Source of the DNA: an uncultured Alphaproteobacteria bacterium | GTDB taxonomy: Bacteria > Pseudomonadota > Alphaproteobacteria > Rs-D84 | NCBI GenBank assembly: GCA_947175875.1 | Contig: CAMWON010000003.1 | Span: forward strand, 72,746-136,745 | DNA: 64,000 bases | Direction: 5' to 3' | In this document: piece by piece, positions 8,184-27,737 of the stretch | Position numbering within the stretch: position 1 is the first letter of the stretch | Layout: every line of letters begins with the position of its first letter | The notes under the pieces: model-generated | What the model was told of the DNA's origin: nothing | The model's input: the letters and a program-made list of their open reading frames with translations, nothing else | The model's database searches: none | Program-made: the position numbers and the translations under genes

Positions 8184-8539
8184 TACAATTGCTCTCCAAT
8201 ACATGCCAAACATTTAATATTTGAACCCATAGATATGTCGCAACATTCCACTTGTGAACTGGTTGCGTCGCATGTGCCATAGTTTTGGGTATAGTATCCT
8301 GTGTTGTCACTGCCGCTGGTGGAACTGCGACTGCATGTGTTGTCTAAGTAGCTCAGGGTATAGTTTTCAGGACACGCATATCGCGTTGTATACTTCCCGT
8401 TTGGACAGCATTGTTGACCGGAACTGCAGGTAAGCTGAAAGTCTTGAGTTGTTATGCAAAGTGCCGCCATTGCGGTGCCGATTGGCGGCGTCTGCCAGGC
8501 AATGATTGCGGCTATGAATAAAGTTTTTGTTTTCGTCAT
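8183..8539 (-). CDS. secreted cysteine-rich protein (13 Cys in ~118 aa)
   Basis: The start MTKTKTLFIAAIIAW... is a signal peptide. The mature part is Cys/Ser/Thr/Gly-rich. The gene is immediately preceded by leader copy A with a CAGGAG RBS. Confidence 0.6.
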   Translation of the reverse strand: MTKTKTLFIAAIIAWQTPPIGTAMAALCITTQDFQLTCSSGQQCCPNGKYTTRYACPENYTLSYLDNTCSRSSTSGSDNTGYYTQNYGTCDATSSQVECCDISMGSNIKCLACIGEQL

Positions 8540-8682
8540 TACTAACTCCTGTTTTGTTGAAAAACAAAAACCACCAAGATAAATGGTGGCCAGGAGGTTC
8601 ATAACAATTGTGAGAATTGCGTTGCGTATTTAAATATTCCGCAACCCTCCTGACCGGGTCAGGAGTTTGTTTTTCGTCACAA
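8540..8682 (-). promoter_or_regulatory. conserved structured 5' leader (copy A) of the cysteine-rich protein operon
   Basis: About 140 nt shared with copies at 8985-9130 and 13864-14008. It contains a hairpin CTCCTGACC..GGTCAGGAG and a second, covarying hairpin. A CCTCCTGGCC box precedes a CCACC..GGTGG hairpin plus T-run, directly in front of the RBS CAGGAG-ATG. Confidence 0.55.
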
Positions 8683-8843: not shown

Positions 8844-8984
8844 TGATTAAAATTCTTTACATATTTGTGTTGCTGAGTTATAGTGACTTATGTCAGTGGG
8901 TGTTTCACTGATGGGGTGTGAGAACCCGTTCCAATGCGTCGGAATATTGTCTTATGGCGCGCTTTGTGCGCTGTTTTTTATATT

Positions 8985-9130
8985 ACGACGAAAAACAAAA
9001 CTCCTGAACCGCGGGTCAGGAGGGCACGCGAAATATTCAAATACGCGGCACAATTCATTGGATTGTTCTCAACCTCCTGGCCACCAGATTTTGGTGGTTT
9101 TTTGTTTAACAAAAATCAGGAGATTGAATT
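8985..9130 (+). promoter_or_regulatory. conserved structured 5' leader (copy B)
   Basis: Same architecture as copy A: GACGAAAAACAAAACTCCTGAACCGCGGGTCAGGAGGG ... AACCTCCTGGCCACCAGATTTTGGTGGTTTTTTGTTT ... CAGGAG-N7-ATG. A -10-like TATATT lies just upstream. Confidence 0.55.
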
Positions 9131-9763
9131 ATGAAAAATCTATCAATTATTTCGCTATTGGCGATAATTAGTTGCGGACATGCGCCTGCTGTGGCAAGTT
9201 CCGCGCAATTTTATTGTTCGGACGGCTCGCGTCCCACAACGGGCTCTGGATATGATACATTTTGTGACGAGGCTGTTTTTTATACCTATTTGGGAGATAA
9301 TATTCGATGCGATACGGATGCTGATTGCTTTGACGGTGGAAATGCGAAATACGATTATGACGAACAAGATGTATATTGCTATAAAGGAACCTATGGATAT
9401 GTCAGCAACCGGGAAACATACGGTATTTGCGCCTATAAATACAGAAATGAAGCTGAATGCAAAAGCAATCAATTTTTTGGCTCCTGGTATGCGACCACAT
9501 TGGACAATCCAATCTTGGATAATGTGTGCATGATGTGTCCGGATAATGCGACTTGTGACGGAAAGGATGTAGAGTGTCATGATGGCTATTATTTAACAAA
9601 CACAAATACGCCATATAATCCCATATGCGCCAAGTGTCCCGGTGCTCCAGGCTTAATAGTGCACAGCAATAACGCAATACGCATAGAGGAATGTTACGCC
9701 ACTGGTGGCACAGACAGCAGTGGTACATTTGAATATACCGGTATGTGTACGTATTCGGAATGA
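9131..9763 (+). CDS. secreted cysteine-rich protein (family member, 210 aa)
   Basis: Signal peptide MKNLSIISLLAIISCGHAPAVA. There are 22 Cys. The C-terminus IEECYATGGTDSSGTFEYTGMCTYSE shares the family motif. Confidence 0.65.
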   Translation: MKNLSIISLLAIISCGHAPAVASSAQFYCSDGSRPTTGSGYDTFCDEAVFYTYLGDNIRCDTDADCFDGGNAKYDYDEQDVYCYKGTYGYVSNRETYGICAYKYRNEAECKSNQFFGSWYATTLDNPILDNVCMMCPDNATCDGKDVECHDGYYLTNTNTPYNPICAKCPGAPGLIVHSNNAIRIEECYATGGTDSSGTFEYTGMCTYSE

Positions 9764-13863: not shown

Positions 13864-14008
13864 TCGTTCGTTCTCCTGTTGTTTTTCGAAATGAAAAACC
13901 ACCCAAAATTTGAGTGGCCAGGAGGTTCAGAACAATCTCAAGAATTGTGTGCTTATTCAATATATTCGCAACCCTCCTGACCTGCGGTTCAGGAGTTTAT
14001 TTTTCGTC
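13864..14008 (-). promoter_or_regulatory. conserved structured 5' leader (copy C)
   Basis: Same element as copies A and B. The hairpins are CTCCTGAACCGCAGGTCAGGAG and CCACTCAAATTTTGGGTGG plus T-run, then CCTCCTGGCC. The RBS CAGGAG lies 11 nt before the ATG. Confidence 0.55.
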
Positions 14009-14140
14009 CGAATATTAAAAATGGCGCTGTGCGCCCAATATTATATTCCTTGACGCTTGAGCAGAGGTTCTGACACCCCATCGGCGAAACACCCGCCGAC
14101 AAATAAATTATATATCACGCCATGCGCAAAAACAAGAAAT

Positions 14141-16563: not shown

Positions 16564-16573
16564 CCACGACGCT

Positions 16574-16647
16574 TGGGGCATAGTTTAACGGTAGAACTCC
16601 GGACTCTGACTCCGTCAGTGTTGGTTCGAATCCAGCTGCCCCAACCA
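16574..16647 (+). tRNA. tRNA-Gln (anticodon CTG)
   Basis: Cloverleaf read by hand: 7-bp acceptor stem TGGGGCA/TGCCCCA, anticodon arm CCGGA-CTCTGAC-TCCGT, T-arm GTTGG-TTCGAAT-CCAGC, and a 3' ACCA. Confidence 0.8.
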
Positions 16648-18120
16648 AGATTGACAGCCGTTCAATTCCATCAGGATATTGAACGGTTTTCTTATTGAAT
16701 ATACTAACTTTTTATCTTTTAATTCGCAGTTCGAAAGTAGCAGGTTTATAATTTGGCGTTTTTGTTCTACTTTCGAACTCCGGAATAATTCCGCCGCGTG
16801 GGACGCCACAGCCAGCAAGGATTCCACCGTCGTTATAAATTCGTCATCTGCCTTGGAATGTGCTTCCAGATGCACGCCCACATCATACAGTTCTTTCTCT
16901 ATATCATTCTTTTTGTCGGCATATTCTTCCTGTGTAATGCTACCCGTCAGCAAGAAATCCAACAAGCGGCTTCTTTTGGACTTTAAAGCATCTTGCTTTT
17001 TACGAAGATTGTCTATCTCTGCCAACGCATAGGCATTTTCTGCCTGTGAGATATTGGTCAGGCATTTCGCTACCTCTTGCATAATATCACGCGGAAAGGA
17101 CAGCTTTTTTAATACCTCATCCTGAATCTGTTGAAATAAGACATCTTCATTTACCGCCAGTTGCGTGCAATTCCCCTTAAAATGTGAACAAGATAGGTAT
17201 GTATAGGTCTTTCCGCTGGGCTTTGTCTTGGTGTCGCTGGTAATCGCGCACCCGCAGTCGGCACATTTTATCAGGCCGCGAAACGCATACGGCTTTTCTG
17301 CATATTTAAATCTGGTGCGGTTCTTACCGTTCATTATCGCCTGACACTTATCATACAAAGACTTATCAATCAATGGTTGATAAATATGCGGATAAAGCGC
17401 GCCTTTGACGTTCATCATTCCGTAATAAAAAGGATTGTTTAATATATTGAAAATCGCGGCCTTTGTAATAGGTTTCCCGCTGATTTTGTTTGTCAGCCCC
17501 CATTCGGCAGCATTTTTAACCAGTTCACCAATCGTATACAAGCCAGAGGCATATTCTTCAAATAGCCTTTGTATTCCGGGGGCACGTTCCGGGTCAACAA
17601 TTATAATGGGCTTATTATTGTCATCCCGGCGGTTTAGATAACCCAGCGGAGCCTGACTTTGCCAGATGCCGTGTTTCGTGTTATAGTCAATGCTTCTTTT
17701 TACATTATCCCGAAGATTGCCAACATAGGTTTTGGCGGAAAATACGCCTAAATCCCACATTGCAATCTCATTTGAACTAGAATCGCGATGCAAACGCAGA
17801 TTTTCCCGGATAAAATGCAGTTCCGCCTTGTCCGCTTTGCGTAATTCATCTAATTCAACAGATTCCTTAAAACTGCGCTGGACGCGGTCGATACAATCCG
17901 CAACAATGGCGATTTTTTCCCGTTGTGCTTTGACAAAGTTCAGCATTTCAACGAACTTTTTACGGTCGCCACGCGTTGAGCTTTCGGTTATTTGAAAGGT
18001 TTCCAGCAGTGTCAGCCCATTGCGCTGGATATATTTATTCAAATTTTCCAGCTGTGCATCAATGGACATCCCATTTTCTTGTTCCCGCGACGATACACGC
18101 GCCAATATCACTGCCTTCAT
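16615..18120 (-). CDS. large serine recombinase (site-specific integrase)
   Basis: N-terminal resolvase catalytic domain MKAVILARVSSREQ. Recombinase domain plus Cys-rich zinc ribbon (CADCGC...CSHFKGNC) and a C-terminal coiled coil. The stop codon lies inside the 3' end of tRNA-Gln. Confidence 0.85.
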   Translation of the reverse strand: MKAVILARVSSREQENGMSIDAQLENLNKYIQRNGLTLLETFQITESSTRGDRKKFVEMLNFVKAQREKIAIVADCIDRVQRSFKESVELDELRKADKAELHFIRENLRLHRDSSSNEIAMWDLGVFSAKTYVGNLRDNVKRSIDYNTKHGIWQSQAPLGYLNRRDDNNKPIIIVDPERAPGIQRLFEEYASGLYTIGELVKNAAEWGLTNKISGKPITKAAIFNILNNPFYYGMMNVKGALYPHIYQPLIDKSLYDKCQAIMNGKNRTRFKYAEKPYAFRGLIKCADCGCAITSDTKTKPSGKTYTYLSCSHFKGNCTQLAVNEDVLFQQIQDEVLKKLSFPRDIMQEVAKCLTNISQAENAYALAEIDNLRKKQDALKSKRSRLLDFLLTGSITQEEYADKKNDIEKELYDVGVHLEAHSKADDEFITTVESLLAVASHAAELFRSSKVEQKRQIINLLLSNCELKDKKLVYSIRKPFNILMELNGCQSWLGQLDSNQH

Positions 18121-18253
18121 TACGTATTCTCTTGGTTTTACTTAGATTTATTATACCTTACGAAAGAAACAATACCAGAGTTTATTATCATAAAATGCCA
18201 AGGCTTGAAAAATGGTAATTTTTTCGTATATCATTAACAAAAAGGGACTGTAA

Positions 18254-21200
18254 ATGAAATTAATAACCTCCACAGATTTACAAAATTGGGCAAAAACGCG
18301 CGAGTCAGAGCAATATTTGCCACTTTTGCTTAGAAGGTTGATTATAAATAAAGTGGGCTTTGATAATATACAACATATTACAATACCGGGTGGTGATAGT
18401 ATATGGAAGCCCGGTGTTGATGGAAAGATTCTTACTCGTGTTGATAGCTTGTTGGGCGAAAAAGATAAAACGTACATGGTAGAGTGCGGTCAGTGTGTTG
18501 AAGATAAACAAAAATTTGAAAATGACTTGAAAAAACGAACAGCTCAACTAGGTGGTGTTAAACAAAAAAATTCTGCATTTGTCTTTATAACTACAAATAA
18601 AATCAAAGATTTAAATAGTACGTTAAATGCAACGAAAGAAAAAGTAGAAGGTAGTGATTTATGGGCTGATATCAAATTATATGATGCAGATGACATAGAA
18701 ACTTGGCTTGACAATGATTTTGCAACGTTTGCATGGCTGGCAGATATTATGGGCAAACAGTCTAATGGCTTAAAAGATTTTGATGGTTTTTGGAAAACTT
18801 GGAAAGCTTCTACTGAAATTCCAATTGACGAAGATATAATCTTAGCGCGCGCGAACACTTATCAAAACGAGGTATATAAATTTTTAAAGAAGGCTTCCGG
18901 AGTTTTTCATATAAAATCATTCAGTCGGAAAGAATCTTTATTGTTTTTTATGGCTTCTATATTAAAAGCACATTTTCCAGAGGATGAGATAGATGCAATA
19001 AAATCCAAAATTGTTATAGTTCAGGATGCTGATGTTTGGAATCGTGTGGTTGAGGATGGTGAAGCAAGCAAGTTTATATTTATTCCATTTTTCGGAATAC
19101 CAGAAAATTTGGGCTTTTTAGTGGACAAAGGTTTGCAGATTTTTATACCAATGGGCGAAAATGATGGAAAAGGAACAGAGTCTAATACTGTCCATATAGA
19201 ACCTTTTAATAATGAGATTTTATACAGTGTGCTAGAGAAGAAGTTAAGTTCATATGAAAAAACCAACCAAATTATTAACAAACTGGGGCATAATGGCACA
19301 TTGCTGCATTTACAAAGAATTATGGAACGCAAAGATGTTTCTAGGCCTGCGCCTCAATGGGTAAGTAAAGAAAATTCGGAGATTTTATTGCTAGCTTCAT
19401 TCGTTGGTGGTTGGTCAGACCAAAATACTAAGGACAAAGAAGCGATAGCCAGTATTTTTGGAATGAATTATTCAGAAATAGTAAAGAAGCTATCTTTTTT
19501 TATCAAAACGGAGGAAGCACCCATACGAAAAATAGGCGATATTTGGGAAGTTGGTTCGCCAGATATTATAATTGATTATTTAGGAGGGCATTTGACCGAA
19601 GATACTCTCAAGAGATATCTAAACGAAACTAAGAAGATTTTATCTGAAATAGATTTGCGCTATAATGAACGTGGTACGAGAAATCTTCTAGCTTCTTATG
19701 ATTTTAGCAGTGGAAAACATACATATTATTCAAAAAACTTAATTTGTGGAATTGGAAATGGGTATGCGGCAATTGCCAACAAAGAGAATAAATTTGTAAA
19801 TTTAAACAGTGTTGAATTCAGAATCCAACAAAATGTACAAAAACTCTTAGAAGATAAAAATTGGAAGAAGTGGGCTACTTTAAATCCTATAATGCCTCTA
19901 TTTGCTGAAGCAGCAAAAGAGAAATATTTGGAATTGCTTGAAAATGTTGTTGCAAATACCCCCTCTTTAATAATTGACCTTTATGAGAAAGGCGAGGATA
20001 TGGGGTTTATGGGAGAGTGTCTGTATTCTGGTATTTTATGGGGGCTTGAGAATCTTGCCTGGTTTGAACCATTTTTTATGAGGGTTATTAATATATTGGT
20101 AAAGATGGAAAAAATTAGAAGAGAAAATTTACGATACGGAAATTCTCCAATAGATACTTTAAATCGCATTTTCTGTACGTGGCTTCCAAATACTTTGGTT
20201 GATTTAAATAAACGGCAATTATGCATATCAAATATATTGAGAACAAATAAAAACTCGGATGTTTTATTTAATTTGTTATATAATTTACTGCCAACAGAAC
20301 ACATGACGTGTCAGCCTACCCATAGGCCACATTTTATTGAATTGCACGCCCCAGAACGCGTTTCTCGTCTAGCTATAGGTAAGTTTAATAATTTTATATA
20401 TACAGAAATTATTAATATGATAGGATGCGATAAAGATAAATGGGATAAGGTAATTCGTTATATAACATATATGAATCCAGAAAGATTCGATATGTTTATA
20501 AATACATTAAAATCTATTGATTGGTTGAATGCAGATGCCGAATTAAAAAACTCTGTATATCAGAATTTAGAACATTGGGTTGATTCTGCTCATCGCTGGA
20601 GTGATGAAAACGCACAGAATTGGGGCGCAGCTGAAAAAATAGCCAGAATAAATGATATATTGACGGAACTCATGCCAACTAATCCTATAGATAAGAATAT
20701 ACGTATCTTTTCTAAGTTTTCGGTTTGGAATTATAGAGAGTACTCGGGAAGCCCCAGTCCCAGATTGCAACAAGCCATTCAAGAAATAATTAGTTCTAGC
20801 GGTCTGCAGGGATTGATTGACTTTGCCAAGCAGATTGACGCTGTTGACGTTCTTGGAGAAGAGTTAGCATTATCTAATATATCGATGGCTGATGTTGTAT
20901 GGCTTTTAAATTCTTCCGATAGAAAAGACCCAAAAGTACAAAGATTTTTATCCGTATTGTTTGCGGTTATCATAAATATTAGAGGGCTGAGTTTAGTCGG
21001 TAAGATTTTTAGTGATGATTGGGAAATTGAATATAAGCAGGCTTTGATATGTACTGTAAAAGGTAATGAAGCATATTGGGAATGGGTGGAGAAAAAAGGA
21101 TTTTCTGAATTGTACTGGAAAAACACAGGTGCAATTTGGCCAAATACTGATAAAGAATATGATATTGCAATTAACAAGTTAAAGGAATTTAGGAAGTTTC

Positions 21201-22033
21201 CTGAATTAGCAACTTTACTTGCCATGCAAAATCGTAGACAAAGCGGGGTTAGAACCGAAGATATTGTAGATTTGCTGTTTGGTATAGCAGAGTCTTCAAA
21301 AGAACAACTTAATAATATGGACTGGTATCATATACAGGACTTATTTAAAATTTTACATAAACGTTCCGACATAGATGAAAAAATTATGTTTAATTTAGAA
21401 ATTAATTATTTTGAATTATTTGATGGTTCAAATGAATTAGAGCCGGTATATATCTATAAGCAACTAAAGGCAAATCCAGAGCTGTTCATAGAGGTAATTT
21501 CTTTAATGTTTGCTAAAAAGGAAGAATCTAAAGAAAAAAGTGAAGAAGAACAAAACAGGTTAAAAAATGCTATAAAAATAGCTCAGAAAATGTATTTTAA
21601 ATTAGAAAAAGATTATATATTTAATGATAAATCCGAACTACACAACTGGGTAAAACGTGCTATGGAGTTGTTAGATAAATTAGAGGAAAAGGAATTAAGT
21701 AGCACAGGAATGAGACAAATTGGTGCTATGTTGGCTAATTGTCCGACTGACCCTAATGACGACATTTGGCCTATTGGCTATGTCAGGGAGCTGCTAGAAG
21801 AAGCGTGTAATCGGGATATAATAGAGGGTATAGTTAGGGGAAAATATAATTCCTGTGGGTTCCATTCTGTTGACCGTACGAATCCGGGGGGGTATTGGGA
21901 AGAGAAGGCTATCAAATTTAGAGCAGATGCTGCTTCTATAAGATTTCAATATCCCAAAACAGCAGAAATATTGGATTGTTTGGCCAAAGATTTTGAAATA
22001 AATGCTAAACGAGCCATAACGGATATTATGTAA
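18254..22033 (+). CDS. very large hypothetical protein (1259 aa), AT-rich, mostly alpha-helical
   Basis: Uninterrupted 3.8-kb ORF. It has no P-loop, no HExxH and no obvious nuclease motif. A distinct ~150-aa N-terminal domain is followed by a long helical region. Confidence 0.7.
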   Translation: MKLITSTDLQNWAKTRESEQYLPLLLRRLIINKVGFDNIQHITIPGGDSIWKPGVDGKILTRVDSLLGEKDKTYMVECGQCVEDKQKFENDLKKRTAQLGGVKQKNSAFVFITTNKIKDLNSTLNATKEKVEGSDLWADIKLYDADDIETWLDNDFATFAWLADIMGKQSNGLKDFDGFWKTWKASTEIPIDEDIILARANTYQNEVYKFLKKASGVFHIKSFSRKESLLFFMASILKAHFPEDEIDAIKSKIVIVQDADVWNRVVEDGEASKFIFIPFFGIPENLGFLVDKGLQIFIPMGENDGKGTESNTVHIEPFNNEILYSVLEKKLSSYEKTNQIINKLGHNGTLLHLQRIMERKDVSRPAPQWVSKENSEILLLASFVGGWSDQNTKDKEAIASIFGMNYSEIVKKLSFFIKTEEAPIRKIGDIWEVGSPDIIIDYLGGHLTEDTLKRYLNETKKILSEIDLRYNERGTRNLLASYDFSSGKHTYYSKNLICGIGNGYAAIANKENKFVNLNSVEFRIQQNVQKLLEDKNWKKWATLNPIMPLFAEAAKEKYLELLENVVANTPSLIIDLYEKGEDMGFMGECLYSGILWGLENLAWFEPFFMRVINILVKMEKIRRENLRYGNSPIDTLNRIFCTWLPNTLVDLNKRQLCISNILRTNKNSDVLFNLLYNLLPTEHMTCQPTHRPHFIELHAPERVSRLAIGKFNNFIYTEIINMIGCDKDKWDKVIRYITYMNPERFDMFINTLKSIDWLNADAELKNSVYQNLEHWVDSAHRWSDENAQNWGAAEKIARINDILTELMPTNPIDKNIRIFSKFSVWNYREYSGSPSPRLQQAIQEIISSSGLQGLIDFAKQIDAVDVLGEELALSNISMADVVWLLNSSDRKDPKVQRFLSVLFAVIINIRGLSLVGKIFSDDWEIEYKQALICTVKGNEAYWEWVEKKGFSELYWKNTGAIWPNTDKEYDIAINKLKEFRKFPELATLLAMQNRRQSGVRTEDIVDLLFGIAESSKEQLNNMDWYHIQDLFKILHKRSDIDEKIMFNLEINYFELFDGSNELEPVYIYKQLKANPELFIEVISLMFAKKEESKEKSEEEQNRLKNAIKIAQKMYFKLEKDYIFNDKSELHNWVKRAMELLDKLEEKELSSTGMRQIGAMLANCPTDPNDDIWPIGYVRELLEEACNRDIIEGIVRGKYNSCGFHSVDRTNPGGYWEEKAIKFRADAASIRFQYPKTAEILDCLAKDFEINAKRAITDIM

Positions 22034-22094
22034 TTGTGATTTGTATTGCACATGCAATAAATGACAAAGTGGGGATTTTCCCCACTTTTTGTCT

Positions 22095-22307
22095 TTAATC
22101 TTCATCATCGGCCACATAATTGCCATATCCATAGCGTTCAAGGCCTTCTTCCTTGTAAAGTCTGCGTTTTAATATTGATACCATAATCACAAACAGGAAT
22201 ATGCAGGATAACACAGTCGCGATAAAAGCTATTATCCCCATCGTCTGCACAACTTCTGCTTGATGTTGCATCTTTTCCATTGCGCTTTGTAATAAATATT
22301 CGTTCAT
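22095..22307 (-). CDS. small membrane protein (70 aa)
   Basis: Single strong TM helix IIAFIATVLSCIFLFVIMVSIL. Lies within the island. Confidence 0.4.
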   Translation of the reverse strand: MNEYLLQSAMEKMQHQAEVVQTMGIIAFIATVLSCIFLFVIMVSILKRRLYKEEGLERYGYGNYVADDED

Positions 22308-22331
22308 TTGTTCTCTCCTTTTGATTAAAAA

Positions 22332-22748
22332 CTACATCGCGTCATATATTCCGGCAAGGCCGACATCTGGGATAACAGAATCAACCCTGATGCCACCCGT
22401 ACCAACGTATAGCTCCATAAATTTCCGCCTGCCTTTGGAAATAATTATTTCTGAGCCACCCCTTTGCCACGTTCCTCCGGTTGAGATAACATATTCACCT
22501 GGTTCTAGATTGGTGCAAAAATAAGAACTATTTGGCAGCCTGCCAATATATTCATTATTTGCGTATATGTCATAGGACATTGCCGCACCAACAAAATTTG
22601 AAGCCCGGAACATGCATAACTGGCCGCCACGTGGGTCAATAAAAGGCAATCTGCGTTCAATAACATCGGCCATTTCTGGGGTTAATTGTGATACAGTACC
22701 ACAACCAACCAGTGAAACAGACAAAATAACAAGCAAAATTTTCGTCAT
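22332..22748 (-). CDS. lipoprotein
   Basis: Lipobox LVGC after MTKILLVILSVS. Confidence 0.55.
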   Translation of the reverse strand: MTKILLVILSVSLVGCGTVSQLTPEMADVIERRLPFIDPRGGQLCMFRASNFVGAAMSYDIYANNEYIGRLPNSSYFCTNLEPGEYVISTGGTWQRGGSEIIISKGRRKFMELYVGTGGIRVDSVIPDVGLAGIYDAM

Positions 22749-22763
22749 GAATATACCCCTTGG

Positions 22764-23504
22764 TTAAAACGTGTATTTAATACCGGCCATAAATTGGAAG
22801 TTATGCATTAAAAAGGTATTATCTTTTAATTCTGTATGACCTATGTAGGGAATATCTATGTTATATTTTATAGTAGTCAGCAAAAGACGATATCTCGCTT
22901 CCGGTGTAAAAGAAATATTATCAGACACTTTTATGTCAAGTCCGATACCAATATTTGCGGCAAAGGCGATATCACCGGATTCCATATTGAGATAATCGTA
23001 TTCATCCGAGTCTGAAAACGACATGCTGGCCGCCCCAAGCCCAAGAATTAGGTCAAAATTGACACTATCGCCCATTTTAAAATACGGTATAAAGTTTATG
23101 ACATAGCTCGTATATCCGACATCTGCATGCAGTTTTGAATCCCAGTCATCATCAAATTTGACCTTTGAAGAAGATATATGTGCAACCTCAAACTCTATCC
23201 GCAAAGACGGGTCATAATTCAAATCAACACCGACGGAGCCAGAAAATATGGGGCTACCTTTAGAAAAAGTAAAACCTGCATCACTATCTTCATCTGTATA
23301 TAGCCACCCGTACATTAAATTGTATCCGCCTTTTGCATTAATGTAAAACCTTGTAGGCTTTTTAGCTTTGGTCGGTATGCGCGCCTGTGCGTATGTAGGT
23401 GTCCTATTCGCTTGATAATAATGGCCGCCCCCAGCAGTCGGCAGAACGGCAGCATTTCCTGAATAGGTTCCAAGAATCATTATGGGAATTATTGCTTTTT
23501 TCAT
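22764..23504 (-). CDS. outer-membrane beta-barrel protein (OmpA/Opa-like)
   Basis: The start MKKAIIPIMILGTYSGNAA is a signal peptide with an AGGTGG RBS. Alternating beta-strand pattern with the C-terminal strand AGIKYTF. Confidence 0.6.
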   Translation of the reverse strand: MKKAIIPIMILGTYSGNAAVLPTAGGGHYYQANRTPTYAQARIPTKAKKPTRFYINAKGGYNLMYGWLYTDEDSDAGFTFSKGSPIFSGSVGVDLNYDPSLRIEFEVAHISSSKVKFDDDWDSKLHADVGYTSYVINFIPYFKMGDSVNFDLILGLGAASMSFSDSDEYDYLNMESGDIAFAANIGIGLDIKVSDNISFTPEARYRLLLTTIKYNIDIPYIGHTELKDNTFLMHNFQFMAGIKYTF

Positions 23505-23924
23505 ATAAACCACCTTTCTTATGCAAAAGATGGCGCGGGGAGTTAAAGAAATCACGATAGAATGACCCCGTTGGCCTTTGGGCGATGCCCTGTTGTATAG
23601 CCAACGGCTCCCCGCAGAAGCAGGGATATGTTTTTGTGGTGCATATCCGGCACCATCTATCGCGAGGTTCTTTACGCCTCGGCATCTCTTTTGCGATGCA
23701 CCTTTATATTAACACCAATGGGCAGAAAATCCAACCGAATATTTACCAAGGTGGCTGTTCAACAATCTTTCCTACGTATTCAATTGTTTTTATATCGCCA
23801 TTGCGCATTTTATCAATCAGAGCAGCAGCAATTGCCTCTGTTTGGTTTTTGGGGTTAAAAGCATAAAAAGTTGTATTGTCCATGTTTAACAATTTAATCA
23901 ATATTTCTTGCATATTATGTCCTT

Positions 23925-24623
23925 TTAGTCTGAAAACATTATTTCCGCGGTTTCACGAGATTGCGCCTTGGGGTTAAAGCCGTATTTGTTGCCAGGACCG
24001 GCTTTTTCGTGTTTAATTTCAAGCGCAGTTTCTGCAATTTTGATTTTTTCGGTTATCCCAAGCCATTTCATACATTTTTGTTCTATACGTTTTTCGCGCT
24101 TCTGGTGATGAACCAAGTCGCACTGCAGGCTGGTAAGCCGTTCCTGCCAGTGCTTTAACTTGTTTTTAGCACTCTGTAATGCCCGTTGTCGGTTTGTTGA
24201 CTCTAGGTCAATTATCTGTTGCCCCATTTTTACAATCATTTGTTTACAATCCGCTATCTGGCGTTCGTATAGACTTTCTGTGCGGTATATCCTTTGGATT
24301 TTAGCCCTGTAATGCTCCAGCAGTTCTTCCGCGCTTTTATGAACCATAATACCGGTTGCACACATACGCATATCGTCTGCTTCATCATTTTGCCAACCTT
24401 GGCGCGATTTGCAGTTTGTGGTCGCAATCAAAGCTAAATTTTGTTCATAGGGCTTCAGCGAGTCGTTTACAAAGAATCTCCCTTGTTCTTGGGTATATTC
24501 GCGACGTTTAGCGCGCTCGTTTTCTAGATTCTGCTTCAGCACACTTGGTGCGAAGCTGTGGTTAGGCATTATGGCCATAATGGTTGAATATTCTGCCCAA
24601 AGTTCATAATCCTGCTGTTTCAT
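23925..24623 (-). CDS. hypothetical coiled-coil protein
   Basis: The internal start MKQQDYELWAEY is used. Charged heptad-rich sequence with no enzymatic motif. Confidence 0.45.
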   Translation of the reverse strand: MKQQDYELWAEYSTIMAIMPNHSFAPSVLKQNLENERAKRREYTQEQGRFFVNDSLKPYEQNLALIATTNCKSRQGWQNDEADDMRMCATGIMVHKSAEELLEHYRAKIQRIYRTESLYERQIADCKQMIVKMGQQIIDLESTNRQRALQSAKNKLKHWQERLTSLQCDLVHHQKREKRIEQKCMKWLGITEKIKIAETALEIKHEKAGPGNKYGFNPKAQSRETAEIMFSD

Positions 24624-24782
24624 CGTTGCTATCTCCGGAAACTCTTCCCGCGTGGGGGCGGGGGTTGATGTTGAAAAATTTATTAAAATTGCTCCCGCGG
24701 GTTGGATATTATAAATATATGTTTGACAAGGTCGCAAAAGCGGCTTCAGTCGGTTGTGTTTGTAATGCGTTGTTTAAAACAG

Positions 24783-25034
24783 CTAGGTTATTTGCCGGAC
24801 TTTGTTTAATTTATCATAAATCGCCTGTTCTATAGCATGGCATGTTTGGCGGTTTATCGGATAAAATACGTCAAAACCGTCCTTTTTTGGAAATGTCAAT
24901 CTATAGCCACCGCTTAATCTGGTATAAACACCGATTGAGCCAAGATATAGTGAATTATTCAATACAATGCTTGCAAAGCCGATTAGACCATCATTTGGAC
25001 GCACAAACTGAATCTTTACTTCTGAAATTGTCAT
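24783..25034 (-). CDS. spoVG: SpoVG family protein
   Basis: Aligns with B. subtilis SpoVG along its length: MTISEVKIQFVRPNDGLIGFASIVLNN...FPKKDG...YPIN matches the conserved ...RVNTDGRMRAIASITLD...HPIN pattern. Confidence 0.7.
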   Translation of the reverse strand: MTISEVKIQFVRPNDGLIGFASIVLNNSLYLGSIGVYTRLSGGYRLTFPKKDGFDVFYPINRQTCHAIEQAIYDKLNKVRQIT

Positions 25035-25230
25035 TCATTACTCCCTTTTGTTGTTTGTGAACATCGCTTAAAATCTTTAAAAAAGAAACGAGCCGCACCC
25101 CCGCTTCCGATGCCTCGGCATCGGAAATCGGCTCTGAGTACAGCCCTTTAATCTTTAAAGATAACAGCGTTTGTTCTTCCATAAACAGAACATAACGCAG
25201 GAATTTATAATTTTATGTAGTTCGCTAGCA

Positions 25231-26019
25231 TCAATTTTTTATTACAAGCGTTGTATCATTTGCAAGCCAACGATATATCGTCTCGCGCTCACCGTCTTTT
25301 TTTAACGGCGGGTTCCAGTTGGAGGGTTCATAATATTCCAGCAAAATAATATCAGCTAACTGACGTTTGCTGCGTACTTGTTGTTTGCTGCAAATTTCAT
25401 GCGCTTTGTCTAAAACCCATTTTTGTATAGTTGCTCTCTTTTTTGCGGTGCTGTGTCCGCTTTGGGCACGTTCCTGTCTGATGATTTGTACCAAACATGA
25501 TTCAAAGTCTACATACGTGTCATTCCAAGCGTTTTTTATTTGGTTTATGTGTTCGGCTCTTTGATTCCGAGTGGCATCGGGGTTGTTATTCAACCAAGTC
25601 AGAAAGGCAGAGCATTTATTTAGCATATCATAAAGTGCCCCGGCCGCGCCGATAGTCCACCATTCGCGATAGGTTAATCTTCTAATAGTGGCTCTTTTTC
25701 TTCCTTCTGGCTTGTCTTTAAATATTAAAGAGCCATCAGGATTGTTTTTCATTTTACGAATATCAAACTTTTTGTCCCGGTTTTGGTTTAAATGTTCAGC
25801 CAACACATCTGGTTTAGAGCTGCGTATTTTTACAAGTTTTTTATATCGTTCAACCGCGAGGTTGGTAAGGGGGAATATTCTGTCGTCAAATACGGAATAA
25901 TTCTCCAAAACAGAATTTCCCGTTTTGGGCAGTGGCTGATAGTTATTCAGCAATTCCAAAGCCTTTTTTGTGGCATTTAGCCGCAACTCTACAAAAATAC
26001 GTTTTTTCTTTTTTGTCAT
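25231..26019 (-). CDS. hypothetical protein (262 aa), basic
   Basis: ORF with good coding character and no recognisable motif. Confidence 0.45.
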   Translation of the reverse strand: MTKKKKRIFVELRLNATKKALELLNNYQPLPKTGNSVLENYSVFDDRIFPLTNLAVERYKKLVKIRSSKPDVLAEHLNQNRDKKFDIRKMKNNPDGSLIFKDKPEGRKRATIRRLTYREWWTIGAAGALYDMLNKCSAFLTWLNNNPDATRNQRAEHINQIKNAWNDTYVDFESCLVQIIRQERAQSGHSTAKKRATIQKWVLDKAHEICSKQQVRSKRQLADIILLEYYEPSNWNPPLKKDGERETIYRWLANDTTLVIKN

Positions 26020-26229
26020 TTCATTACGCCTTATTTTTAGCTTATATTCTTATGCTATGGCAGTTTTGGGGCAAATACAAGCTTTCTGGTATATTGCCTA
26101 TATTTTTTATTATCGTGGCTAAACTTAGAATGTCTTTGTAATACGTAGTTCGAAATTCGTTTGCTATCGTCAACCAGAATTCAAACGCCCCTTGTGGGCG
26201 TTTTTATTTGTGTATTCAAAAAAGACGCG

Positions 26230-26258
26230 TTGACAAAAAATATTTTTAGGTATAGCAT
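26230..26258 (+). promoter_or_regulatory. candidate sigma70 promoter
   Basis: TTGACA, a 17-nt spacer, then TAGCAT, upstream of the AAGGA RBS and the ATG at 26284. Confidence 0.3.
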
Positions 26259-26283
26259 GGGGCTGTTTAAAAGGATAATATTT

Positions 26284-27702
26284 ATGAAGTATTCAGATTC
26301 ATATGATTTTAAGTATAGTGGATTTACCGTATCCCGCTATAATATTGAGGATTATATTGCTGCGTTGCCCGGTAACGGCGGGCGGTTTGGGCGTCGCACC
26401 ATGTACTACCATTCATATGGCATAGTAGAAAGCATGATACGTTCCATTGCGTCCGATGATTTCGAATTTAATCCAAACGACAAGGGTATGTGTCGCCTGT
26501 TGGAGGAAATGATTCGTAAAGGTGGGCACGACCGTGGGGTATATTCGGAAAGTGCGCACATGGCAATGCGTAATTTATGCATCGCCCAGGGAAAAAATCC
26601 GGACAACCATTTGCTGTATGACAAAACTATTTCCGGCAGAATCAGCCAGGCTACGTCAAAAATAAAGGGCCTGTTTGGTTTCGGCAAAAAGAAACATGGC
26701 GCGGCACCGGCGGAATCCGAGCCCGCACAGGTTGTTGATGTGCCCGCTGAATCCACGCCTGTGTCGCACATTGACACCGATGTGGATGTTGCGGTTGAAC
26801 CGGCCCCGGTTCAGCAGCAGACCGTACCCGACACCGTCATTGAACCGGGTGTCGATGTTCCTGCCACTGATGCGGTTGCAGATACGCAGCCCCAAAAATC
26901 ATCCCGCAAAGCTAATATATTGTACAACATGGCGGCAACTGTGGCCGGGATTGCTGCGATTGGCGCTCTTGTTTTGACGGGTGGGCGTGCAAACAATATG
27001 AATGGTGATGCGGCGCCGGTGGATTCGGTACCGACGTTTAAAACAGTGTCTATGGGTGATACATCACGCACCATGACCCAGGTATATAATCTGGGTGACT
27101 TTGCAAATCAGGCCCGTAATGCGACTATCCCGACATTGAATACGGCCAGGGCACCGCGCACACCAGTCACATCGGTACGTCCGGCCACACATGTCGCGCC
27201 GGTCGTAACCTCGGCCGCGCCGGCCAAGAAGGTGACCAAGCGGGCCCCGACCGCATCGCGTGTCGCGACTGATTCCGTAGCGGTACAGTTGACCCGGGCC
27301 AGCAAAAGTTCCCTGAACATTCTGCTGGGGACCAAAAAGGCCGATGAATTGTGCCGTCGTGTGCAGTCCCAGATAGATGCCGGCATTTTTGCCGCGCCGA
27401 ACGGCATGTCGGCCGAACGCATTGCGCATGCCATGACAATGAGCCGTGTATATGAAGGTAAAAGTGTTATTTTGGATGCGTTGAATTCCACGGTCGCGCT
27501 GACCCCGGCCCAACAGGCGGCCTTTAATCAGCATATTGATGAAATCGGCGATATGGGCGTGAAAATCCAAAAACGCATGGCGTCCAAGCATAAGCTGTCA
27601 AATCACAGTCGTTTTGACCGTGCATCCCATGCGCAGCAGACGGTGCATATCAAAAACGTGAAACAATTGAAACAGTTTCGAAAACTGGCACGCACACGCT
27701 GA
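26284..27702 (+). CDS. hypothetical Pro/Ala/Thr/Val-rich protein with one central TM helix
   Basis: The start is set downstream of a terminator-like hairpin at 26185-26208 that lies inside the longer ORF (26161). There is low-complexity PAxxTPV-type sequence and a TM ILYNMAATVAGIAAIGALVL. Confidence 0.45.
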   Translation: MKYSDSYDFKYSGFTVSRYNIEDYIAALPGNGGRFGRRTMYYHSYGIVESMIRSIASDDFEFNPNDKGMCRLLEEMIRKGGHDRGVYSESAHMAMRNLCIAQGKNPDNHLLYDKTISGRISQATSKIKGLFGFGKKKHGAAPAESEPAQVVDVPAESTPVSHIDTDVDVAVEPAPVQQQTVPDTVIEPGVDVPATDAVADTQPQKSSRKANILYNMAATVAGIAAIGALVLTGGRANNMNGDAAPVDSVPTFKTVSMGDTSRTMTQVYNLGDFANQARNATIPTLNTARAPRTPVTSVRPATHVAPVVTSAAPAKKVTKRAPTASRVATDSVAVQLTRASKSSLNILLGTKKADELCRRVQSQIDAGIFAAPNGMSAERIAHAMTMSRVYEGKSVILDALNSTVALTPAQQAAFNQHIDEIGDMGVKIQKRMASKHKLSNHSRFDRASHAQQTVHIKNVKQLKQFRKLARTR

Positions 27703-27705
27703 CAA

Positions 27706-27737
27706 TAAAACGCCCGAACCGGGCGTTTTATTTTTTA
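27706..27737. terminator. intrinsic terminator AAAACGCCCGAACCGGGCGTTTTATTTTTT
   Basis: GC hairpin plus T-run immediately after the stop at 27702. Confidence 0.55.

Follow-up and report, generated by a model that had tools for sequence, protein, structure and literature searches.

We analyzed a 64,000-nucleotide stretch of DNA (the window) from an uncultured Alphaproteobacteria bacterium (GenBank assembly GCA_947175875.1, contig CAMWON010000003.1, forward-strand positions 72,746 to 136,745), and within it a single large gene on the forward strand, at 18254..22033 with the stop codon included, that the original prediction had singled out as a candidate one-gene defense or effector system. All nucleotide coordinates given here are window positions unless another locus is named. 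The gene is one unbroken frame from an ATG start to the stop and encodes 1259 amino acids (aa), in line with the 3.8-kb open reading frame (ORF) that had been described, and it has full-length homologues. Its GC content is 34% within a chromosome of ∼50% GC; the 18–22 kb interval lies at 0.33–0.35 and the flanks on both sides at ∼0.50, so that the earlier remark on a GC content far below the surroundings was accurate. Because stop codons are abundant in AT-rich DNA, chance does not account for an open frame as long as 1259 codons: at the composition of this gene, stops are expected at ∼7% of codons, and we estimate the chance of 1259 consecutive open codons at ∼1e-41. The ratio of nonsynonymous to synonymous substitution rates (dN/dS) is 0.12–0.18 in every segment when compared with three close relatives for which DNA was at hand, and we therefore take this to be a functional coding gene under purifying selection.

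The gene stands beside a large serine recombinase of 501 aa on the reverse strand (16615..18120; Pfam Resolvase 2.6e-14, Recombinase 2.8e-10, Zn_ribbon_recom 2.5e-8), which in turn abuts a tRNA-Gln(ctg) gene (16574..16647, +, found with ARAGORN) at the left edge of a low-GC island. The recombinase had been called an integrase, with the large gene immediately downstream of it. The adjacency to a recombinase at a tRNA is correct; the two genes are in fact divergent across a 133-bp spacer, and the three recombinase domains identify the neighbor as a large serine recombinase and not a tyrosine integrase. Inside the spacer, 20 nt before the ATG, lies a promoter-like site (TTGAAA-18-TATCAT, 18205..18234, +) with 10 of 12 consensus matches. 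Promoter-like sites in the region do not exceed the chance number, and the case for this one is its position. A bidirectional terminator-like hairpin follows 33 nt past the stop (22066..22088), with a 10-bp stem, five pairs of which are G-C, and a run of T on each strand. With a promoter-like site and a terminator of its own, the gene looks monocistronic.

Domain architecture of the 1259-aa protein

AlphaFold2 (AF2) models were built on 42-sequence alignments for aa 1–460 (predicted local distance difference test score, pLDDT, 90.9; predicted template-modeling score, pTM, 0.89) and for aa 441–1259 (pLDDT 89.0, pTM 0.68). The distinct N-terminal domain of the original prediction is present in the model and measures ∼165 aa. 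On the basis of its predicted fold and its conservation we assign aa 1–165 (18254..18748, +) as a putative nuclease head of the restriction-endonuclease-like, PD-(D/E)xK type. Helices at residues 16–34 and 84–97 and strands at residues 39–43, 57–61, 73–78, and 104–112, the first three strands following one another without intervening helices, give aa 16–112 the α-β-β-β-α-β order of the PD-(D/E)xK core in the model. The head is the most conserved part of the protein, with a mean pairwise identity of 0.395, and among 157 aligned members D56 and G57 are invariant, K87 is kept in 99%, E77 in 98%, and E/D48 in 95%; R27/R28, G54, D91, R95, T113, and D144 are conserved as well. Strand 2 opens with D56, in the sequence context P-G-x-D; strand 3 contains E77. 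The canonical (D/E)xK lysine would fall two residues after E77, and that position (79) is G or S; K87 stands ten residues past E77, in helix 2, and is a likely candidate for a relocated catalytic lysine.

The earlier statement that the protein lacks Walker A, HExxH, and HD motifs was correct, and a DEAD motif is likewise missing. Its companion, that no nuclease signature is obvious, holds for motifs and does not hold for the fold, given the core order of aa 16–112 and the conserved D56, E77, and K87. Searches with Pfam, NCBIfam, and PDB profiles returned no profile similarity of the head to a known PD-(D/E)xK member. An hhalign comparison of aa 1–170 with the FokI cleavage domain gave a nonsignificant probability of 0.3%; its sole local match paired strand 4 with the strand of FokI that is equivalent in topology.

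In the model, residues 166–440 comprise an α/β domain and a winged helix, with a helical linker between them. The α/β domain (aa 200–320, 18851..19213, +) is predicted to have a fold like that of AAA+ proteins and signal transduction ATPases with numerous domains (STAND), without a Walker A motif, and is probably a degenerate adaptor. Regular expressions and column profiles located the Walker A pattern GxxxxGK[ST] in none of the 157 aligned members. The P-loop position reads [AS]-[DE]-[ST]-x-x-E227, the Walker B position is weakly acidic, and no nucleoside triphosphatase (NTPase) Pfam family was matched in the 35 alignment members that were scanned. Just one column of the domain is well conserved, and its pairwise identity of 0.26 is the second-lowest of six segments compared. 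In Foldseek searches the N-terminal model matched SAMD9 (2e-5), Apaf-1 (3.5e-4), and Dark and Avs4 (7.6e-3), at low TM-scores of 0.25–0.33, and these top matches stem from the α/β domain, the helices that follow it, and the winged helix. The winged helix itself (aa 372–440, 19367..19573, +), in which W387 is 97% and D394 100% conserved, begins the conserved body of the protein.

The remainder, aa 441–1259 (19574..22030, +), is an all-α solenoid that we regard as a putative sensor or regulatory body. More than 1000 aa of helical repeat had been proposed; the C-terminal part is indeed helical, and the all-helical portion covers 819 aa. Two conserved blocks, aa 441–700 and 1001–1259, enclose the most variable stretch (aa 701–1000, 20354..21253, +), a candidate specificity region with a mean pairwise identity of 0.22 and only three of 300 columns conserved at 90% or more. 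Structure searches with the solenoid retrieved generic HEAT/ARM proteins only (Z ≤ 9), with no specific match to the solved Avs sensors. Strong motifs at aa 548–554, 594–603, 630–647, and 1156–1240 (LLAEAAP, GxLWALExLAW, NxPxxSLxxIxxPWxPxT, IGxxLxxxPxDxxxxWP, and GxxNSxG) are invariant between proteins of ∼20–25% identity. Such invariance suggests that this region forms a defined pocket for binding, or a site of docking within the molecule, and not a plastic repeat surface.

Exchange of heads and extent of the family

Searches with a profile of the winged helix and solenoid alone, followed by a profile of atypical members, retrieved proteins that share a clearly homologous C-terminal part of ∼880 residues with the window protein and have N-termini unrelated to it. 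In P0189 and P0190 the head is a SIR2 domain (Pfam SIR2_2; PADLOC pAgo-associated SIR2, E 6e-122), and aa 378–1257 of the window protein align with aa 373–1254 of P0189 at 26% identity (E 4e-68). The P0193 group aligns with window aa 380–1209 (E 4e-39) behind a TIR-like head (PADLOC TIR effector, 3.5e-12). P0044 has an AlbA_2/Schlafen head; the P0036 group has a 286-aa module with a GGGxxFE...DD...QxK pattern, a second nuclease-like module; and the 186-aa head of the P0196 group is of no recognised type. Altogether, the N-termini of 254 body-containing proteins cluster into six head types, with four body-only proteins (851–863 aa) besides. On the two contigs examined, the body-only proteins P0212 and P0208 have an overlapping upstream gene whose 320–331-aa product is 46–59% identical to the P0036-type head, so that a head gene overlaps the start of a body gene (L033 4049–7592; L035 4006–7568). 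These split forms may be natural fissions at the module boundary, or possibly frameshifts.

From the shared body and the unrelated N-termini it follows that the protein joins an exchangeable head (aa 1–∼375) to a body that is conserved (aa ∼378–1259). The α/β domain is missing from the SIR2, TIR, and AlbA_2 forms and belongs to the exchangeable part, which is why we do not file the family under STAND. A description of the protein as an Avs with a dead ATPase, which we had favored at first, was downgraded when the α/β domain proved to lie outside the conserved core of the head-swapped relatives. In the PDB, the N-terminal model matches human SAMD9 best; this antiviral factor of the STAND type has an AlbA_2 effector domain, and the P0044 variant bears an AlbA_2/Schlafen head on the body studied here; this is a coincidence worth a structural comparison.

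The word "orphan", used of this protein before, no longer applies. A word-index search found 44 homologues, nearly all of 1210–1370 aa and alignable end to end, and a profile of aa 1–460 searched against 1.84 billion representatives collected 4,898 clusters (defined at 50% identity) at E ≤ 1e-3 and 2,594 at E ≤ 1e-30, counting the nuclease-headed form alone. The window protein is also a member of phrog_18693 (PHROGs v4, function unknown), with aa 1–1254 aligned to profile positions 1–1245 of 1258 (E 3.2e-91). Hosts include Alphaproteobacteria, Gastranaerophilales, Endomicrobium, Brevibacillus, Paenibacillus, Binatia, Acidobacteria, Schlesneria, Nitrospiraceae, Electrothrix, and Cloacimonetes, a patchy spread over at least nine phyla that takes in free-living soil and marine bacteria. 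The family is carried on 24 plasmid or chromid records, 11 of them conjugative, from Rhizobium, Cupriavidus metallidurans CH34, Shewanella baltica, Ralstonia, Arthrobacter, and others. Decayed copies occur at L023, L024, L025, and L027. Against the copy in L009 (10001–13777), the rate of synonymous substitution (dS) is ∼0.6 over codons 1–800 and then 0.07–0.13 over codons 801–1259; N- and C-terminal identities are likewise discordant in close relatives (90% and 98% for P0001, 92% and 77% for P0005). This mosaic pattern indicates recombination between alleles.

Apart from noise (DELLA, Use1) and fused helix-turn-helix (HTH) or AlbA_2 domains, Pfam, NCBIfam, and PADLOC returned nothing for the protein and 35 relatives, and PDB sequence searches with the single protein and two profiles gave nothing below E 0.1. 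No mention of three representative accessions was found in the papers searched, and the family may be listed without a name in the supplementary tables of recent surveys. Members fused to an HTH are called "helix-turn-helix transcriptional regulator" or "HigA family addiction module antitoxin" by the Prokaryotic Genome Annotation Pipeline (PGAP) and RefSeq; examples are L028 (Shewanella baltica OS195 pS19502, WP_012197948.1), L029, and L030. This label derives from an XRE domain of ∼90 aa that caps a protein of ∼1,350 aa; it is misleading and hides the family. A further observation concerns L010 (CALUVP010000102.1), in which a contig of 3.4 kb from a Candidatus Gastranaerophilales metagenome-assembled genome (MAG) bears a copy with 83% identity, a bin whose phylum (Melainabacteria/Cyanobacteriota) differs from that of the Alphaproteobacteria carriers. 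Either the gene has recently crossed between phyla in the gut, or the contig was binned wrongly; the 34% GC of the window gene fits a low-GC donor.

Gene neighborhoods and the island in the window

All-against-all clustering of ORFs from 28 loci revealed no conserved partner gene. Among 106 ORFs within 5 kb of the family gene in 17 nonredundant loci, the raw counts are nine for ResIII, six for Eco57I methylase, four for Resolvase, three each for N6_Mtase, SNF2, PLDc_2, AAA_21, and Phage_integrase, and two each for SIR2_2, Fic, and HNH. PADLOC detected type III and type IIG restriction systems, DrmD, and DrmMI (DISARM-like) in the same loci. At individual loci, a PLD-SNF2 helicase and Eco57I-type methylases lie near the family gene; in Brevibacillus gelatini a type III Res and a SIR2-HerA are directly upstream of it; the locus from a rumen alphaproteobacterium has a ResIII-Eco57I fusion; and that on a Thalassospira plasmid combines Abi, SIR2, two RES-Xre pairs, and AbiEii. 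Mrr_cat adjoins a SIR2-headed form and TIR-NB-ARC a P0036-type form, and the split pair of L033 sits in a type I restriction-modification (R-M) operon, between hsdM/hsdS and an HTH-PIN pair with hsdR. Recurrent proximity to known defense genes in unrelated genomes, the operational mark of a defense island, is thus seen for this family. TniB and TniQ at a Paenibacillus locus identify the gene there as Tn7-like cargo, and outside the window the gene rides on Tn7-like transposons, conjugative plasmids, and prophages.

In the window, the 3′ end of the recombinase gene overlaps the 3′ end of tRNA-Gln by 33 nt. The enzyme has weak CcrB/XisF-like NCBIfam matches and matches the PHROG integrase family phrog_95 (1e-64). 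The same tRNA adjoins the same recombinase in L008 and L009, and in L014 a homologous recombinase (19847–21372) overlaps a tRNA-Glu in like manner, with another member of the family ∼8 kb away in the same locus. These sequence overlaps suggest a class of serine recombinases that integrate into the 3′ ends of tRNA genes and rebuild them. No convincing direct repeats of an att site were found for the island, as is expected with a serine recombinase, and no empty site was found. A megablast of 16–24 kb against E. coli genomes gave no match.

L008, a MAG from an uncultured alphaproteobacterium, is syntenic with the window over 9.8–33.5 kb at ∼90–95% DNA identity and holds a copy of the gene with 97% amino-acid identity. 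L009, a second Alphaproteobacteria MAG, has only 16573–22329 and 23470–26211 in common with the window; from these segments we deduce a low-GC island of ∼9.6 kb, running from the tRNA to ∼26.2 kb. The homology to L009 stops at 26211, and an indel relative to L008 starts at 26209. The rest of the island (22332..26211, reverse strand) encodes, by Pfam, NCBIfam, and PADLOC, a DUF2846 lipoprotein-like protein, an outer-membrane β-barrel, and two proteins without a family (270 and 262 aa, genes within 22332–26019); the 270-aa protein has a weak, probably spurious PADLOC match to JetC/MukB-like coiled coils (E 0.0016). The remaining window is ordinary chromosome, with lepB, rnc, groEL, and a P-type ATPase.

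Two further observations concern the window at large. A 1.5-kb segment (26210–27724) with a 513-aa ORF (26161..27702, +) that has no match in Pfam, NCBIfam, PADLOC, or PHROG is missing from the syntenic L008 locus, and similar terminator-like hairpins flank it at 26183–26209 and 27708–27734, which suggests a gene cassette gained or lost by recombination between the hairpins. Three stretches of 150–250 bp (8517–8678, 8891–9139, and 13882–14112) each match at least two places in L008, in both orientations and at 74–81% identity; they make up a dispersed small repeat family of this alphaproteobacterial lineage, similar to miniature inverted-repeat transposable elements or repetitive extragenic palindromes.

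Interpretation and comparison with known systems

Taken together, these data make it reasonably probable that the window protein works alone as a modular immune sensor and effector of the abortive-infection type and comes from a family that has not been described. In such a scheme, the body would hold the nuclease head in check and release it on binding an infection cue; a phage protein is the most likely cue, a nucleic-acid structure a less likely one. Binding would alter the conformation or the oligomeric state of the protein and bring nuclease heads together to cut DNA, which would halt phage replication at the expense of the cell. No hydrolysis of nucleoside triphosphates would be involved. 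The gene itself is cargo of the serine-recombinase island integrated at tRNA-Gln. We are less sure of the class of trigger (a phage protein) and of activation by head dimerization than of the immune role itself.

Several lines of evidence lead us to a defense function. One body carries SIR2, TIR, AlbA_2, and nuclease-like heads in exchange for one another. The nuclease head is the best conserved part of the protein and combines the canonical order of elements with D56, E77, and K87. The gene has no conserved partner and has expression signals of its own, its neighborhoods are rich in defense genes and mobile elements, and the patchy spread, conjugative plasmids, PHROG family, mosaic dS, and occasional pseudogenes fit the same picture. 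There are, moreover, published single-protein precedents (Avs7/Dsr1, KpAvs8, DSR2, and Upx). The earlier proposal of a single-gene defense protein as island cargo is, by inference, supported by the shared body, the lack of a partner, the gene's own signals, and its neighbors. More specifically, it is plausible, if short of probable, that the body is an undescribed NTPase-independent immune sensor that serves at least six heads, is sometimes split from them, and responds to one conserved signal, perhaps as a STAND lineage without the NTPase. The many invariant polar residues of the body suggest one conserved infection signal in place of a diversifying phage protein, and the structural resemblance to SAMD9, Apaf-1, and Avs could be the trace of a STAND receptor lineage whose NTPase was lost.

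Some of the results weigh against an immune sensor-effector. Pfam, NCBIfam, and PADLOC recognise no further defense gene in the island of the window, and neither the body nor this type of head is covered by a model in PADLOC v2, Pfam, or NCBIfam. The neighborhood counts come without a formal background. Many polar residues are invariant in the solenoid, which is unusual for a sensor of rapidly diversifying phage proteins and may mean an invariant ligand or some other role. Lastly, an N-terminal XRE-type HTH is present in 35 of the 157 members (∼22%) and would also fit a DNA-directed or regulatory function.

The last two points lead to what we consider an unlikely alternative, a DNA-directed, restriction-like nuclease (type IV/Mrr-like, or aimed at plasmids or other mobile elements) in which the winged helix, joined in many relatives by the HTH, directly reads DNA that is foreign or modified, and the solenoid is a scaffold or oligomerization platform. 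A winged helix does open the conserved body, the N-terminal HTH recurs, R-M genes are often adjacent (even within a type I operon and beside Mrr_cat), and DNA would be an invariant ligand of the kind that the polar solenoid residues suit. Yet the replacement of the nuclease by SIR2 and TIR domains, both of NADase type, and by AlbA_2 argues for generic cell killing over site-directed cleavage of DNA, an 820-aa solenoid is large for a scaffold, and no methylase partner is conserved. That the gene serves the mobile element itself, as an addiction or stabilization module or as an exclusion factor against competing elements, we find improbable. The gene invariably lies on mobile DNA or close to it (tRNA serine-recombinase islands, Tn7-like transposons, conjugative plasmids, the PHROG family), and one member is labeled an addiction-module antitoxin of the HigA family by PGAP; however, defense systems are typical cargo too, so that this context does not discriminate, the HigA label reflects just the fused XRE-type HTH, no toxin or antitoxin partner is conserved, and the repertoire of heads matches that of immune effectors.

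A true STAND/Avs-type NTPase receptor, in which nucleotide-driven oligomerization through the central α/β domain activates the nuclease, would share with our protein the exchangeable N-terminal effector and C-terminal repeat sensor by which such receptors are recognised, and which we observe here as six heads on one body. The Walker A motif that defines the class is absent from all 157 members, and this explanation is distinctly improbable. We hold it very improbable that the protein has a housekeeping or regulatory role, or that it is secreted as an effector or toxin with eukaryote-like repeats. The names PGAP gives to HTH-fused members speak for a regulator, the HEAT/ARM-like solenoid resembles eukaryotic scaffolds, and the source of the window is related to gut Alphaproteobacteria MAGs. 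Patchy distribution, horizontal transfer, and pseudogenes are a poor fit to housekeeping, and near-invariant residues of catalytic type in the head, together with its replacement by SIR2 or TIR, do not suit a plain regulator. The large effector or toxin that had been offered as the alternative to a defense protein loses ground as well: no signal peptide or secretion-associated domain was found, soil and marine free-living bacteria and plasmids carry the gene, and many members have an XRE-type HTH.

If the immune sensor-effector assignment is right, a large and broadly distributed family of one-gene antiphage proteins escapes Pfam, NCBIfam, and PADLOC v2, and its members are mislabeled by the NCBI pipeline. 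It would be a well-defined addition to the pattern-recognition proteins that work without an NTPase switch (Dsr1, Dsr2, and Upx), and would make it testable how a helical sensor controls unrelated effectors without nucleotide-driven oligomerization. The natural head swaps and the two-gene split supply construct boundaries near aa 375, and cultured carriers (Shewanella baltica, Rhizobium, Cupriavidus metallidurans CH34, Paenibacillus, Brevibacillus, and Pseudomonas putida) make experiments practical. The family is thus a good and practical experimental lead and no surprise in kind.

Among known systems, the head is closest in type to the PD-(D/E)xK superfamily (FokI, Mrr, Cap4), from which it differs by G or S at the +2 lysine position, by a conserved lysine later in helix 2, and by the lack of a profile match. 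For the protein as a whole, PHROG membership extends over the full length and adds occurrence in phages or prophages without a function annotation, and PADLOC gives no match of any kind, its library not having been checked for a Upx model. With Avs proteins (Avs3, Avs4, Avs7) the window protein shares a single large polypeptide with an exchangeable N-terminal effector (often of PD-(D/E)xK or Mrr/Cap4 type) and C-terminal helical repeats, a center of α/β domain, helices, and winged helix that may be similar in structure, and a setting of defense islands and mobile DNA with extensive horizontal transfer. It differs from them in lacking both Walker motifs, A as well as B, across the 157 members and any STAND match by sequence in Pfam or PADLOC, and its α/β domain is the least conserved of four domains and is gone from head-swapped relatives. 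The sensor of Avs7 is common to Dsr1, which lacks an NTPase, and occurs in combination with 20 or more effectors (PMC13581612); since Dsr1 and Avs7 have this sensor in common, such sensors can work with or without a STAND module (PMC13581612). The Walker motifs of KpAvs8 are degenerate (PMC13581612).

DSR2 joins SIR2, a middle domain, and an α-solenoid without an NTPase, and is activated by a tail tube protein (PMC11850899, PMC11263360). The likeness of our family to DSR1 and DSR2 lies in the order of N-terminal effector, middle region, and C-terminal α-solenoid and in the missing NTPase, and P0189 and P0190 have exactly this layout; the window protein, by contrast, has no SIR2, and PADLOC assigns no Dsr model to P0189 or P0190. 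Upx is a non-STAND terminase sensor of ∼1,200 aa in a single protein, with a divergent PD-(D/E)xK effector and an abortive-infection logic (PMC13601566); its sensor is N-terminal, β-rich, and acts by β-augmentation, and its nuclease is C-terminal (PMC13601566). The window protein is likewise a one-gene, non-STAND protein of ∼1,200 aa with a large putative sensor and a putative, divergent PD-(D/E)xK-type head, but its domains stand in the reverse order and its body is all-α. By analogy, then, the window protein would work as a sensor-effector of the Avs, Dsr, or Upx type and yet be a member of none of them.

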